Assembly (NCBI GenBank): GCA_017482465.1
Contig: JAFUMW010000018.1
Coordinates: forward strand, 663 to 64,662
Reading direction: 5' to 3'
DNA from: Clostridia bacterium
GTDB lineage: Bacteria > Bacillota > Clostridia > Oscillospirales > CAG-272
DNA length: 64,000 nt
The position numbers and the translations under genes were made by a program. Below are positions 5,733 through 44,344 of this stretch, one piece after another (the first letter of the stretch is position 1; every line of letters begins with the position of its first letter). The notes under the pieces were generated by a model that had not been told where the DNA came from, did no database searches, and worked only from the letters and a program-made list of their open reading frames with translations.

Positions 5733-6001
5733 AATTTAAAAGAAACCTCCCGGAATAAATACTTAGTATTATATTAATTATAATACTTCGTATAACTATA
5801 GAATTACTATTATATTTTACAACAAAAATATGGCAAAGTCAAGCATGAATTTTGCTTTGAAAACGATAAAAATCTCGCTTTTACATGCGCTCGGTCAAAT
5901 TGCTCAATTTACGGCGCGTCATGTTGTGCAACAATGACAATAAAACCGTCAGTATGAACATAACACGCACTTTATTTTTGTTAAAATGGTTAAAGCGGAA
6001 T

Positions 6002-40721: not shown

Positions 40722-41426
40722 TTATTTCTTAAGTCTTTTATCCGACTTTGCCGCAAGGCGTGTGCCGATGCTCTGGAATATCTGCACCATTACAATAAGC
40801 AATATCACCGCTATCAGCATAACAAGGTACTTGTATCTGTAATAGCCGTAGTTTATCGCTATCTTACCAAGTCCGCCGCCGCCGATGATTCCGCTCATCG
40901 CGCTGTAACCGAGTATCGTTATCACCGCTGTTGTTGCGTTTGTTATAAGCGAGGGCACGCTTTCGGGTATCATCACCTTCGTGATTATTTGAAAGGGTGT
41001 CGCGCCCATGCTTTGTGCCGCTTCGATTATGTTTGGGCTGACTTCGCGTAAGCTTGATTCAACAAGTCTCGCCACAAATGGGAACGCCGCTATTACAAGC
41101 GGGACTATCGACGCTACCGTGCCGACTGCAGTTCCCACGATCAGGCGTGTGAGAGGGAAAACAAGTATCATAAGTATCAAAAACGGTACCGAACGCAGAA
41201 GATTTATTACCACGTTAAGTATCTGCATCAACCATGTGGGCAGAGGCAGAACACCGTTTTTCTCTCCGGCGACCAGAAGTACACCGAGCGGAAGTCCGAG
41301 AACTATCGCAAATGCCGTGGACAGAACGGTCACGTAAAGAGTTTCCCACACTGCGGTAGGAAATTCGGAAACAAGTATCGCCAATGCTTCTTGGAATGCC
41401 TCATAAGAAAACACCTTATCAAACAT
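40722..41426 (-). CDS. metI: Methionine ABC transporter permease
   Basis: 234 aa, five TM segments, MetI-type EAA-loop region (EAAQSMGATPFQII). Operon with metN and metQ. Confidence 0.88.
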   Translation of the reverse strand: MFDKVFSYEAFQEALAILVSEFPTAVWETLYVTVLSTAFAIVLGLPLGVLLVAGEKNGVLPLPTWLMQILNVVINLLRSVPFLILMILVFPLTRLIVGTAVGTVASIVPLVIAAFPFVARLVESSLREVSPNIIEAAQSMGATPFQIITKVMIPESVPSLITNATTAVITILGYSAMSGIIGGGGLGKIAINYGYYRYKYLVMLIAVILLIVMVQIFQSIGTRLAAKSDKRLKK

Positions 41427-42423
41427 TTGCGCTCACCTCCTCGACGTGAATATCTGCAGTTTGCTCGAGATATTCTTTGACACGCTTCGCGCTATCGGTA
41501 TCCGGAACGCCGAGCAACATATTTCCGTACGCTTTGTCTCCGATGCTCTTCGTAGACGCGGAAAGAATATTCGCGCAAATGCCGGTGTCTACAGCCATTT
41601 TTGTTATTATGGGAGCGTTTGTGGCGGGTGCGCCGTTGAATACCACTCTGAGCTTCTTTTCATCTGTATCGGCAATACTTTCGCCAATACCGTCGGGGAA
41701 AACGAGCTTTTTTGCCGCGTTTGACTGCGGCTTGGAGAATACGGCTGAAACAGTGCCCTCTTCAACGACCGAGCCGCCGTCAAGTATGGCAACGCGGTTG
41801 CATATCTCCTCCACAACACTCATCTGGTGAGTGATGATTATCACGGTGATACCCAGACGCTCGTTTATCTCTCGGATAAGCGAAAGAATGGAGTGTGTCG
41901 TATTCGGGTCGAGCGCGCTTGTCGCCTCGTCGCAAAGCAGTATCTCAGGGTCTGTCGCAAGCGCACGCGCGATCGCTATACGCTGTTGCTGACCGCCCGA
42001 AAGCTGTGCCGGATAGGCGTTTGCTTTATCGGGAAGTCCGACTATCTCAAGAAGCTCAAGAGCACGCTCGCGTGCCGCTTTTTTGTCGACACCCGCAAGC
42101 TCAAGCGGAAAGCATATATTTTTAAGACAGGTCCTCTGCATCAGCAGATTGAAGCCCTGGAATATCATCGTTACCTTGCGGCGTACACTTATAAGCTCTT
42201 TTTCGGAAAGCGAGCCGATGTCAACGCCGTCGATGAGAACATTGCCCTCGCTCGGCCGCTCAAGCATATTTATGCATCTCACGAGCGTGCTTTTACCTGC
42301 GCCGCTCATACCGATAATGCCGTATATATCTCCGTTGTTTATTGTAAGCGAGACGTCCTTGAGTGCGTGTACCGTACCCCCGGAAACCGCAAACGATTTT
42401 GATAGGTTCTGTATTTCGATCAT
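41419..42423 (-). CDS. metN: Methionine ABC transporter ATP-binding protein
   Basis: Walker A GMSGAGKST, signature LSGGQQQRIAIARAL, Walker B ILLCDEATSALD, C-terminal NIL domain. ATG 42423 with GGAG 6 nt upstream is preferred over the TTG at 42444. Confidence 0.92.
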   Translation of the reverse strand: MIEIQNLSKSFAVSGGTVHALKDVSLTINNGDIYGIIGMSGAGKSTLVRCINMLERPSEGNVLIDGVDIGSLSEKELISVRRKVTMIFQGFNLLMQRTCLKNICFPLELAGVDKKAARERALELLEIVGLPDKANAYPAQLSGGQQQRIAIARALATDPEILLCDEATSALDPNTTHSILSLIREINERLGITVIIITHQMSVVEEICNRVAILDGGSVVEEGTVSAVFSKPQSNAAKKLVFPDGIGESIADTDEKKLRVVFNGAPATNAPIITKMAVDTGICANILSASTKSIGDKAYGNMLLGVPDTDSAKRVKEYLEQTADIHVEEVSANV

Positions 42424-42510
42424 TGTTATCTCCGCGCCGTTCAAAGCGGCCTTTCGGTAAAGTCGGTTACCGCAGAGGGATTCTCTGCGGTAACATTTTT
42501 GTTTACTTGA

Positions 42511-43362
42511 TTATTTAAGTGCGTCAAGGGTTGTCTGCTTGCCGCCGTAGAGACCGAGGGGTTCAACGTGGATAGCAGCCGCGGAAACAATGTGAGTTCC
42601 GTTTTCTGCATTGAAGTCGTCAAGGTAGGGTGTGTGCTGGAAGTAGTTAGCGTCGATCTCGCCGCTTTCAACAACGTTGTTGGGCTGTACATAGTCGGTA
42701 AACTCAATGATATCAAGTGTGATATTCTTTTCGGCAAGGATACCCTTTGCGACAGCAAGGATCTCTGCGTGAGGAGCGGGAGAAGCCGCAACCGATATTG
42801 TTTCGCCGTCAAGCGCCGCGTAGTCAACGTCTGCCGCGTATCCGTCGCCGGGCTCTTCAACAACGCTTACAACGGCGCCTGCATATGTTTCGGTGATATA
42901 ATCTGCAACAGCCTTGCTTTCAAGAGCTGCTACGAGTGCCTTGATCTTGTCTGTGTTCTCATTTCCTTCCTTAACAGCTACGATGTTGCTGTAAGCGGAG
43001 GAGGAGCCTTCCATTTCAAGAGCGTCTTCAATGGGGTTCATTTCAGCGGCGATCGCATAGTTGGAGTTGATTATAGCATAGTCAACATCCTGAAGGATGT
43101 TGGGAAGCTGAGCCGCTTCGACTTCCTTGAATTCAATGTTCTTGGGATTGTTTTCGATGTCGAGGATAGTAGCCGTGATGCCTGCGTCTTCTTTAAGAGT
43201 GATATAGCCGAGAGATTCGAGAAGAAGAAGAGCGCGGGCTTCGTTTGTGGTATCGTTGGGAACAGCAATAGTAAGTGCGCTGTCATTTGAGCAAGAGGAA
43301 AGTGCAAAAGCGGATGTAAGTAAAAGAATTGTTGCGAGAATAAAAGATAATGCCTTTTTCAT
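42511..43362 (-). CDS. metQ: MetQ/NlpA-family methionine-binding lipoprotein
   Basis: Lipobox LSSC after MKKALSFILATILLLTSAFA. NlpA-family body (..DANYFQHTPYL..). Confidence 0.88.
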   Translation of the reverse strand: MKKALSFILATILLLTSAFALSSCSNDSALTIAVPNDTTNEARALLLLESLGYITLKEDAGITATILDIENNPKNIEFKEVEAAQLPNILQDVDYAIINSNYAIAAEMNPIEDALEMEGSSSAYSNIVAVKEGNENTDKIKALVAALESKAVADYITETYAGAVVSVVEEPGDGYAADVDYAALDGETISVAASPAPHAEILAVAKGILAEKNITLDIIEFTDYVQPNNVVESGEIDANYFQHTPYLDDFNAENGTHIVSAAAIHVEPLGLYGGKQTTLDALK

Positions 43363-43437
43363 GATTGTTTCTCCTTTAATATATGAAAATTAATTAGGGA
43401 ACGATTTTGAGTCGGAGCTGCAGCGTACGCAAAAGCG

Positions 43438-43474
43438 AAATCAAATAAGGGAAGCCTCCGATGAAGCTTCCCCC
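43438..43474 (-). terminator. Intrinsic terminator/attenuator in the metQNI leader
   Basis: On the minus strand, GGGAAGC-ttcatcggag-GCTTCCC is followed by TTATTTGATTT. It lies about 25 nt after the leader-ORF stop and about 75 nt before the metQ ATG. Confidence 0.55.
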
Positions 43475-43496
43475 GAAATTTCGTTATCGTACAGTT

Positions 43497-43610
43497 TTAT
43501 TCTGCGCGATCTGTGACAGAAAGCATACCGGAATTATCAGCATAGAAAAACTTGCACATGCTGCACATGTACATTTCTGTCATATTCATCATAGTCTGCT
43601 GCTTCTTCAT
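43497..43610 (-). CDS. Putative Met-rich leader peptide (37 aa) of the metQNI operon
   Basis: AAAGGAG is 8 nt before ATG 43610. The peptide is MKKQQTMMNMTEMYMCSMCKFFYADNSGMLSVTDRAE*, with 8 Met and 2 Cys, and 6 of residues 7-18 are Met. This is the internal part of track ORF 43497..43730. Confidence 0.45.
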   Translation of the reverse strand: MKKQQTMMNMTEMYMCSMCKFFYADNSGMLSVTDRAE

Positions 43611-43668
43611 GATGCTTTCTCCTTTCGCCAAAACTGCTTTTGTGCACGGAGTATCTCCGCTTGCCGAC

Positions 43669-43697
43669 ATTATATCACGTAAAAACGCATATGTCAA
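43669..43697 (-). promoter_or_regulatory. Consensus sigma-A promoter of the met leader/metQNI operon
   Basis: On the minus strand, TTGACA (43692-43697), 17-nt spacer, TGaTATAAT (TATAAT at 43669-43674). Both hexamers match consensus perfectly and there is an extended -10. Confidence 0.65.
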
Positions 43698-43716
43698 TAG
43701 GTGAAAGAAAAAATTT

Positions 43717-44175
43717 TTATTCAACTTCAAGATCGGGTATGACAGAGGAATTGCTCTTTACCGATTTGAGTACAAAATGAGTTCTTGTAGACTGTACGCC
43801 CGACACGCTCTTGATCTTTCTGTGAAGCTTTTCAAGGCTGTCTGACGAGTCTGTGAAGATTTTGAGCATAAAGTCATATTCGCCGGTGAGATAATAGCAG
43901 GACTGTATGCTTTCGGTCTCTCTTACCATTTCAGCGAAAACATCGTAGAATTTGGGGTGCTCAAGGCTTACCTCCATAAGTGCGATGAGATCGTTGCCGA
44001 GCTGTTTCTGGTTGAGAGTGATGGTGTATCTTTCGATCGTATTGTTCGCTTCAAGCTTTTTTATGCGTTCGATAACAGCTGAGACAGACAAATTGATCTT
44101 TTTGCTTATATCAGAGGCTTTCATTCGCGCGTTGTCTTTGAGACAGGAGAGTATTTCGAGATCGATTTTATCCAT
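43717..44175 (-). CDS. Lrp/AsnC-family transcriptional regulator
   Basis: 152 aa. N-terminal HTH (LDKIDLEILSCLKDNARMKASDISKKINLSVSAVIERIKKLE) and a C-terminal RAM/AsnC ligand-binding domain. Confidence 0.85.
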   Translation of the reverse strand: MDKIDLEILSCLKDNARMKASDISKKINLSVSAVIERIKKLEANNTIERYTITLNQKQLGNDLIALMEVSLEHPKFYDVFAEMVRETESIQSCYYLTGEYDFMLKIFTDSSDSLEKLHRKIKSVSGVQSTRTHFVLKSVKSNSSVIPDLEVE

Positions 44176-44344
44176 GATGTTGCTCCTTTTGCGGTATTCG
44201 CCGTATTAATTTTATTATCATTTCCATTATACCAAAATAATTTCGGCATGTCAAGGCTAATCGCGTGAAATTGTTGAAAAGTGACGTATTTTGTCGTTAA
44301 AATGTCAAAAAATCATAAAAAAGCGAAAATATTTTCCAAATCTA

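Follow-up and report, generated by a model that had tools for sequence, protein, structure and literature searches.

Directly upstream of the methionine uptake operon metQ-metN-metI (metQNI), in a stretch of 64,000 nt of the genome of a Clostridia bacterium (contig JAFUMW010000018.1, positions 663 to 64,662; hereafter the window), lies an open reading frame (ORF) of 37 codons that is rich in methionine codons and is placed between a consensus promoter and an intrinsic terminator. This leader-peptide ORF was confirmed as a real element of the window and of related loci. Based on the sequence comparisons described below, we propose, with a probability of about 60%, that it is part of a ribosome-dependent transcription attenuator of the trp type, in which translation of the leader would read the level of charged Met-tRNA, and possibly that of Cys-tRNA, to control metQNI. 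All the leader features are on the minus strand, and their coordinates are collected in Table 1.

An earlier reading of this DNA, made from its letters alone (the sequence-only reading), had described a promoter consisting of TTGACA and an extended -10 box 17 nt apart, a strong Shine-Dalgarno sequence (SD; AAAGGAG), a 37-codon ORF with eight Met (six of them within residues 7-18) and two Cys, a terminator about 25 nt past the stop codon and about 75 nt before metQ, and metQNI downstream. All these components were recovered. The promoter scored 12/12 with the TG extension in a promoter scan and in a check of the sequence, and the transcription start was placed at about 43662 from promoter spacing only. 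Met occupied residues 1, 7, 8, 10, 13, 15, 18, and 29 of the leader peptide and Cys residues 16 and 19, and no Pfam family was found for it. The terminator started 22 nt past the leader stop codon and ended approximately 75-85 nt ahead of the metQ ATG (43362), the distance from the end of the leader ORF to metQ being 135 nt. Its stem (43474-43447) was G+C-rich and contained 12 pairs (-19.9 kcal/mol), and its U tail was interrupted (AUUUGAUUUC, 43446-43437; also written ATTTGATTTC). A scan of the minus strand revealed no further promoter-like site from the terminator to metQ, and metQ is preceded by its own SD (AAAGGAG, 43377-43371). The products of the three downstream genes were confirmed by their Pfam matches.

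Conservation and coding signals of the leader

One genome per species was scanned, which gave 80 metQ loci, mostly from Clostridia metagenome-assembled genomes; 547 MetQ relatives were confirmed. A Met/Cys-rich small ORF located 75-283 nt upstream of metQ was present in 30 of the 80 loci, corresponding to 30 species, with peptides such as MDNRFAMMDMTGMYMCSMCM.., MKKLSA..MMGMCMCSMCMFC.., and MKKLNSTAMMMEMCMFSMRMCMCM... Met density was counted in these 80 loci plus the window (538 kb, 9635 small ORFs), using a threshold of at least five Met per 12 residues. Only 28 small ORFs were that dense; in 26 cases the ORF precedes metQ by 75-283 nt in the same orientation, and a further one is the ORF of the window. 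An intrinsic terminator was found 14-45 nt past the stop codon in all 31 leaders (the 30 species and the window), its 5' arm being by eye an SD-like purine run (GGRAG) in 27 of them, and a GGAG-type SD stood at similar spacing in the aligned related leaders. Conservation was one of the checks that the sequence-only reading had named beforehand as able to refute it, a covariance-model match being another, and the ORF, the Met run and the terminator were all kept in the 30 other species. A profile built from the 30 leader peptides retrieved 38 further small proteins from public assemblies, none of which carried a name.

A 5' hairpin at the position of the one at 43660-43646 in the window was also common in the related leaders, with variable sequence. 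A recurrent form of this 5'-terminal hairpin, CCAACCUACC-NNNN-GGUAGG, was observed just past the -10 box and approximately 25-45 nt upstream of the leader ATG at loci L005, L024, L029, L033, L059, L073, L083, L085, L087, and L089. It may be a stabiliser of the mRNA 5' end or a binding site.

Several observations indicated that the leader is read as codons. Throughout the leader ORFs, 223 ATG triplets were in frame with the start codon, 16 were at +1 and one at +2; differences between leaders in the length from the start to the Met run were multiples of three; and none of the 31 leaders was interrupted by an in-frame stop codon. The leader peptides contained 20.8% Met and 9.5% Cys, versus 0.5% and 0.57% in MetQ (30 orthologues) of the same loci. 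In the window, MetQ has three Met and one Cys in 283 residues, this Cys being the lipobox cysteine, and such a sulfur-sparing composition fits a protein that must be made under methionine scarcity. A structural choice of Cys codons was rejected, the ratio TGC:TGT being 76:26 in the leaders versus 39:9 in metQ.

The sequence-only reading had seen neither an S-box nor a T-box in the leader, and this was borne out when Rfam 15 covariance models were run on the whole window at gathering scores and on positions 43300-43800 at E<=10. No match at gathering scores was obtained anywhere in the 64 kb. The second search gave noise only, with no match to any SAM (S-adenosylmethionine) family (SAM-I/S-box, SAM-II to SAM-VI, SAM/SAH) or to the T-box (RF00230), its best low-scoring match being that of the terminator hairpin to the Listeria small RNA sbrA (20.5 bits versus a cut-off of 45). 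Likewise, no known RNA family was found upstream of metQ in 20 related leader-bearing loci, and no S-box upstream of metQ in any of 40 loci screened. A T-box leader with AUG at the specifier position was detected at the orthologous position of the metQ locus L017 (2707-2956, 104.9 bits). The search thus had the power to find one, and this T-box indicated that tRNA-Met sensing is used at metQ; L017 is an example of sensor exchange at one gene. At locus L047, a cobalamin riboswitch (5800-5997, 109 bits) was observed past metN and metI, with about 2 kb between it and the metQ start.

Since the SAM and T-box models gave no match, an RNA switch acting independently of translation would have to be a new one: either a riboswitch not yet described or a leader that binds a protein or a tRNA, made up of the helix P1 and the AUG-rich hairpin P2 (both described below) and the terminator, with the ORF being incidental. 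The strong structure of the leader (z of -3.8 over 300 nt in the window), the lineage-specific complementarity in P1 and the stability of P2 relative to codon-order shuffles would agree with it. However, the bias of ATG triplets toward the frame of an SD-preceded start, the insertions and deletions in multiples of three before the run, and the lack of in-frame stops in the 31 leaders are properties of a translated sequence, and neither a conserved core of several helices nor conserved unpaired nucleotides of the ligand-pocket type were seen in these RNAs. We consider this alternative highly improbable.

Residues other than Met and Cys vary freely across the 30 peptides, and the only invariant columns were two, both Met, which favours codon sensing via tRNA charging over a specific arrest peptide. 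In the latter case, the same RNA parts would respond to another signal, the nascent Met/Cys-rich peptide stalling the ribosome in the presence of free methionine, SAM or a similar compound, as TnaC does with tryptophan. A core such as MMMEMCM..MCM does recur in many members, closer relatives sharing MMMEMCM, and a sensor of this type would escape the problem that shortage of Met limits initiation; besides, the peptide-conserved second ORF present in many loci (see below) shows that peptide-level leaders may operate at these operons. Nevertheless, positions of the run beyond Met and Cys differ widely (e.g., MMNMTEMYMCSMC, WMMSGMMRMMRTMGMRM, SMAMCMRMMRT), whereas known arrest peptides need a specific sequence, and enrichment in cognate codons is the signature of a tRNA-charging sensor. 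An arrest peptide is accordingly regarded as unlikely.

The leader was not restricted to metQNI. It was also found before operons that start with a gene for a Cys_Met_Meta_PP enzyme of 427-428 amino acids, of the O-acetylhomoserine sulfhydrylase or cystathionine synthase type (L083, L085, L087, and L089), and the leaders of these four loci carry P1, the terminator and the second ORF too. Being shared by functionally related but differently organised operons, the leader behaves like a cis-regulatory signal of a sulfur-amino-acid regulon. This distribution also bears on whether the leader could be a separate small gene or a dual-function small RNA, i.e., a unit of about 220 nt whose micropeptide or RNA acts in trans, read-through into metQ being incidental or constitutive. 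The ORF is indeed bracketed by a consensus promoter and a complete terminator, the 38 small proteins retrieved with the profile were predicted by gene callers, and an attenuator RNA and a leader peptide with functions in trans (rnTrpL and peTrpL) offer a precedent in Sinorhizobium. Against this stand the constant position of the element, always directly upstream and on the same strand of sulfur-amino-acid genes in three operon types, the lack, in the window, of any promoter-like site past the terminator and ahead of metQ, and the poor conservation of the peptide outside Met and Cys, its conserved tail being accounted for by pairing with the SD spacer. This possibility was thus judged improbable. 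A precursor of a peptide made by ribosomes and modified after translation (RiPP), or a stand-alone micropeptide, was not supported: the neighbours are always genes for sulfur-amino-acid transport or synthesis, the peptide has no Pfam match, and its tail is explained by RNA pairing.

Alternative pairings and the proposed attenuation mechanism

Four segments were distinguished in the leader RNA: the spacer with the 3' part of the SD (segment 1), a pyrimidine-rich anti-SD close to the ORF's 3' end (segment 2), and the terminator's two arms (segments 3 and 4). Segment 1 resembles segment 3 and segment 2 resembles segment 4, which is the hallmark of a trp-type attenuator. In the minimum free energy (MFE) fold of the window, AGAAAGCAU and AUGCUUUCU form nine Watson-Crick pairs, giving the helix P1. 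The register of this helix shifts between lineages (window AGAAAGCAU versus L005 GGAGAACU; also seen in a second alignment), so that sequence alignments understate P1, and it was therefore judged by alignment-free tests comparing own-locus and cross-locus duplexes. Own-locus duplexes averaged -17.3 kcal/mol versus -14.8 kcal/mol for cross-locus ones, and none of 20000 permutations was as good; with the 9-nt spacer alone, 12 of 50000 were. The spacer varies among species and its partner varies in a compensatory way, as in L005 (GGAGAACU/AGUUCUCC), L073 (GGAGAACGC/GCGUUCUCC), L067 (GGAGAGCA/UGCUCUCC), and L084 (GAAAAUCAG/CUGAUUUUC). The conserved tail of the leader peptide (..SD.LSV; ..LSV/..FSV) is explained by P1, because the codons there pair with the non-coding SD and spacer.

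In the MFE fold of the window, CAGUUUUGGCGA, in the 5' untranslated region just upstream of the SD, was also seen to pair with the region of the leader stop codon (CGC..AAAACUG), prolonging P1. This pairing of 43488-43506 with 43625-43636 (minus strand) puts the whole leader ORF, including its stop codon, inside one long imperfect hairpin.

Segment 2 was also the candidate partner of the terminator. When partners of the terminator 5' arm were sought from codon 2 to the terminator, the best 12-nt partner overlapped the anti-SD in 19 of 30 leaders, including that of the window (5.7 expected, P<5e-6). Shuffled arms paired less strongly with the anti-SD than the real terminator arm did (mean z -1.36, p 2e-7), and in folds in which segment 1 and the Met run were masked, the terminator arm paired with the anti-SD region in about 20 of the 30 leaders. 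Most leaders have a distance of 2-26 nt from the 3' end of segment 2 to the end of the ORF farther downstream. In the window, the 2:3 duplex consists of GCUUUCU paired with GGGAAGC. A small local hairpin formed by CGAUAACGAAAUUUC and GAAGCUUCAUCG (about -5 kcal/mol) was also considered as the antiterminator of the window and was rejected as too weak.

The second half of the Met run itself forms a hairpin (P2), with AUG-UGC-AUG on both arms and the next 10 nt enriched in T. P2 was present in 37 leaders, with a mean of -10.5 kcal/mol, and shuffling the order of the codons gave less stable hairpins (mean z -0.89, p 5e-7). Speculatively, P2 may be an RNA polymerase pause element.

From these elements, the following mechanism is proposed. 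The consensus promoter would produce a leader RNA with a well-initiated ORF of 37 codons that has six AUG in codons 7-18. When Met is plentiful, the ribosome would reach the stop codon and cover segment 2, segments 3 and 4 would fold, and transcription would end before metQ. If no ribosome is loaded, segments 1 and 2 would pair as P1 and the terminator would form again. When Met-tRNA is scarce, the ribosome would stall in the Met run, between segments 1 and 2; formation of P1 would be hindered and segment 2 left free to pair with segment 3, so that the terminator would fail and metQNI be transcribed. This scheme supposes that stalling happens, that the stalled ribosome blocks the 1:2 pairing, and that the 2:3 pairing suffices against the terminator. 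P2 and its U-rich tail might, more speculatively, pause RNA polymerase until the ribosome melts P2, thus synchronising both, as classical attenuators require.

The leader-peptide attenuation put forward by the sequence-only reading gained support from the absence of covariance-model matches, from conservation, and from a family-level RNA architecture that fits alternative pairing controlled by ribosome position. As regards the mutually exclusive structures for which folding of the leader had been suggested, P1 and a family-wide 2:3 complementarity were found, while the 2:3 pairing of the window did not appear in constrained MFE folds.

Several points weigh against this attenuation mechanism. 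Concerning P1, RNAalifold applied to a MAFFT alignment of 30 leaders returned no consensus pairs, and a fixed-column count was marginal (56% paired cells, with a covariation score matched by 14 of 500 shuffles). Concerning the antiterminator, the absence of a convincing one by eye had already been remarked, and that of the window was indeed weak, its -8.7 kcal/mol and seven pairs, three of them G-U, comparing with the -19.9 kcal/mol of the terminator. A swap test of the 2:3 pairing revealed no lineage-specific covariation (own -7.4 versus cross -7.2 kcal/mol, p 0.31), so the complementarity could be a by-product of purine/pyrimidine composition. Statistically, the tests overstate independence, since the 30 species are related and metQ and its leader may move together horizontally. 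Mechanistically, a ribosome stalled in the run leaves the SD uncovered, so that the model has to invoke queued ribosomes or steric hindrance; initiation, too, should be limited when methionine is short; and uncoupling of transcription and translation is reported in Bacillus subtilis, which, if it also occurs in Clostridia, would make leader-peptide attenuation difficult. Support for the pairing of segments 2 and 3 comes from the positional and shuffle tests, not from the swap test. In the closest relative (L001), the 2:3 duplex has one more pair and does appear in the constrained fold. The antiterminator of the Escherichia coli trp operon is also much weaker than its terminator, so the weakness of that of the window is not disqualifying on its own.

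A further duplex was observed in the window between the first 28 nt of the inferred transcript (43662-43635) and 29 nt located just past the terminator tail (43437-43409; minus strand). It had -26.8 kcal/mol versus -12.7 +/- 3.0 for shuffles (0/500), and in read-through transcripts it would enclose the entire attenuator in a single domain. This duplex was left out of the model, as its conservation across loci was unclear (own -14.7 versus cross -13.5 kcal/mol, 471/20000). Three matches to CGAATGTG elsewhere in the window were dismissed as chance occurrences.

Table 1. Positions of the leader elements and operon genes in the window, and of leaders and second ORFs at related loci.
Feature	Locus	Position	Strand	Remarks
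Sigma-70-type promoter of the leader	Window	43669..43697	-	TTGACA 43697-43692, 17-nt spacer, extended -10 TGATATAAT 43677-43669
5'-end hairpin of transcript	Window	43646..43660	-	GCGGAG AUA CUCCGU
SD of leader ORF	Window	43619..43625	-	AAAGGAG, 8 nt before ATG, about 50 nt downstream of promoter
Segment 1 (5' strand of P1)	Window	43612..43620	-	AGAAAGCAU; 3' part of SD and spacer up to start codon
Leader ORF	Window	43497..43610	-	37 codons and TAA; product MKKQQTMMNMTEMYMCSMCKFFYADNSGMLSVTDRAE; from ORF list and translation
Regulatory codon run	Window	43557..43592	-	Codons 7-18; Met codons 7, 8, 10, 13, 15, 18; Cys codon 16; next Cys codon is 19
Hairpin P2	Window	43553..43573	-	Met/Cys codons; UGUACAUGU GCA GCAUGUGCA, then AGUUUUUCUA; marked terminator-like in scan
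Segment 2 (anti-SD)	Window	43518..43526	-	AUGCUUUCU, codons 29-31; 3' strand of P1, candidate antiterminator 5' strand
Intrinsic terminator	Window	43437..43474	-	Segment 3 GGGGGAAGCUUC 43474-43463, loop AUCG, segment 4 GAGGCUUCCCUU 43458-43447
metQ	Window	42511..43362	-	Substrate-binding lipoprotein, NlpA/Lipoprotein_9, 283 amino acids; Pfam PF03180, 3.8e-81
metN	Window	41419..42444	-	ATP-binding cassette (ABC) ATPase with C-terminal NIL domain (Pfam ABC_tran+NIL); longest ORF
metI	Window	40722..41426	-	ABC permease (Pfam BPD_transp_1), 234 amino acids
Leader before metQNI	L081, L084			
Leader before Cys_Met_Meta_PP+metQNI	L085/86	L085 579-704		
Leader before Cys_Met_Meta_PP+PALP+ECF-S	L087/88	L087 1933-2067		
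Leader before Cys_Met_Meta_PP+polar-amino-acid ABC transporter	L083	4001-4129		
Leader before operon starting with Cys_Met_Meta_PP enzyme	L089	4001-4132		
Second ORF	L005	2829-2915 region		
Second ORF	L007	2873-2941		
Second ORF	L011	401-457		
Second ORF	L013	849-929		
Second ORF	L024	2756-2890		
Second ORF	L060	2805-2885		
Second ORF	L065	2817-2885		
Second ORF	L066	2804-2878		
Second ORF	L070	2718-2795		
Second ORF after terminator	L083, L085, L087, L089			

Relation to known regulatory leaders

Methionine genes of Firmicutes are the textbook case of S-box and T-box control, and leader-peptide attenuation is, to our knowledge, regarded as mainly proteobacterial and actinobacterial. Like S-boxes and Met T-boxes, the Clostridia element sits in a 5' leader that carries a terminator, and it serves an identical physiological target, but its proposed sensor is the translating ribosome instead of an aptamer or a tRNA-binding RNA. 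With the proteobacterial trpL, hisL, pheL, thrL, leuL, and ilvL it has in common a short SD-preceded ORF with cognate codons and a terminator before the first gene, together with the proposed choice among alternative 1:2, 2:3, and 3:4 pairings by ribosome position. It differs from these classical attenuators in that it would sense Met (with Cys), in its Clostridia host and in serving an importer operon, as well as in its design, since segment 1 is here the leader SD and spacer, the loop joining segments 1 and 2 holds the codon run, and the codons themselves form a hairpin.

Attenuation by Met had been described in the sequence-only reading as not classically known. Met leaders have, however, been predicted in two other bacteria, with no regulatory test reported in the papers cited here for them. 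Two are predicted in Campylobacter jejuni, MetL before metBA and CJsORF19 (MMYQMR) before a MetQ-like gene, and translation of both was seen by initiation-site profiling (PMC3847290; bioRxiv 10.1101/2022.11.09.515450). In Streptomyces lividans, metL (..GARCMCRRMCAF; ..RCMCRRMCAF), with Met and Cys codons and no clear terminator, is predicted upstream of metNIQ (PMC8079986). As in Clostridia, these are small ORFs with Met codons (Met and Cys in Streptomyces) before methionine synthesis or uptake genes, proposed as attenuators, but they belong to other phyla, are much shorter or leaderless, and have only three Met codons; no conserved pairing scheme, family-wide distribution or regulatory test is described in those papers. 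Runs of sulfur-amino-acid codons ahead of sulfur metabolism genes are also known for Cys: mycobacterial polycysteine leaderless upstream ORFs are reported to be cysteine-responsive attenuators of sulfur genes (bioRxiv 10.1101/834739), and leader peptides with Cys runs and no obvious intrinsic terminator occur in Actinobacteria (Seliverstov 2005, PMC1262725). These differ from the Clostridia leader in being Cys only, leaderless, devoid of an obvious intrinsic terminator, and actinobacterial. Within Firmicutes, a His leader peptide upstream of hisS/hisZ paralogs in bacilli was predicted computationally and presented as the first regular leader peptide of the phylum (PMC2965389). It is likewise a regular leader-peptide attenuator where relatives use a T-box, the amino acid, genes and clade being different.

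No description of this leader family, of its peptide motifs or of a Clostridia Met leader was found in open-access papers and preprints. New in the scheme proposed here are the amino acid sensed, the clade, the use of the SD as segment 1, the codons doubling as a hairpin, and regulon-wide use. Conserved in no fewer than 30 Clostridia species, ahead of operons for synthesis as well as uptake, a Met/Cys-codon leader of this kind would extend ribosome-sensed attenuation to an amino acid so far missing from its list, would show a different sulfur-amino-acid logic in little-studied gut and rumen bacteria, and would give a compact natural Met-responsive switch. It would also be a test case for an attenuator whose sensed amino acid serves initiation as well, and for the sufficiency of transcription-translation coupling in Firmicutes. 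For annotation purposes, it accounts for a set of "hypothetical" proteins of 30-45 residues in metagenome catalogues.

More tentatively, the leader could be one member of an as yet undescribed regulon-type control, widespread among gut and rumen Clostridia. In it, the SD region of a translated Met/Cys-codon leader would act as the anti-antiterminator strand and the regulatory codons would form a hairpin; in many species the leader would be paired with a second peptide-conserved ORF, and together these would replace the usual S-box or T-box at sulfur-amino-acid genes. We hold this broader proposal as somewhat less probable than not. If true, charging of both Met- and Cys-tRNA would be sensed by one ribosome, and coupling in a lineage of Firmicutes would be close enough for classical attenuation.

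Second leader ORF and neighbouring genes

A second conserved leader ORF was observed at a number of related loci, either between the terminator and the first gene or alone; it is not present at metQ of the window. Its product has the consensus M..YFEKLVRANFRFGRM, followed by a stop codon or Cys codons (also given as ..FEKLVRANFRFGRM and ..FRFGRM-stop), and this peptide-level conservation is suggestive of an arrest-type leader. The second ORF always ends in the nucleotide motif CGA-AUG-UG(A/C). This 8-mer occurred at most 260 nt upstream of metQ in 29 of the 80 loci, versus 10 matches in 949 kb elsewhere, and it supplies the 5' strand of a hairpin. The 3' strand of this hairpin, a CACAUUC-like sequence, is found 30-60 nt farther on, immediately ahead of the SD of the gene. 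No description of this second ORF was found in the literature.

In each of the 76 loci with an identified metN, this gene follows metQ and has its orientation; metI was found in 69 loci. For metN of the window, gene callers on the identical contig place the start at 42423 (334 amino acids), versus 42444 for the longest ORF.

The sequence-only reading had also pointed to an Lrp-type regulator gene upstream of the leader as a possible second regulatory layer. Such an Lrp/AsnC gene is present and stops 19 nt before the -35 box. It was found beside the leader only in the window and in the closest relative, L001, so the element and this gene are not conserved partners, and a conserved second layer was rejected. 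No terminator-like site separates this gene from the leader promoter, and read-through from it into the leader is thus possible. Two 12/12 consensus promoters with the TG extension were observed within 560 nt on the minus strand, one before the Lrp/AsnC gene (44226-44254) and the other before the leader (43669-43697).

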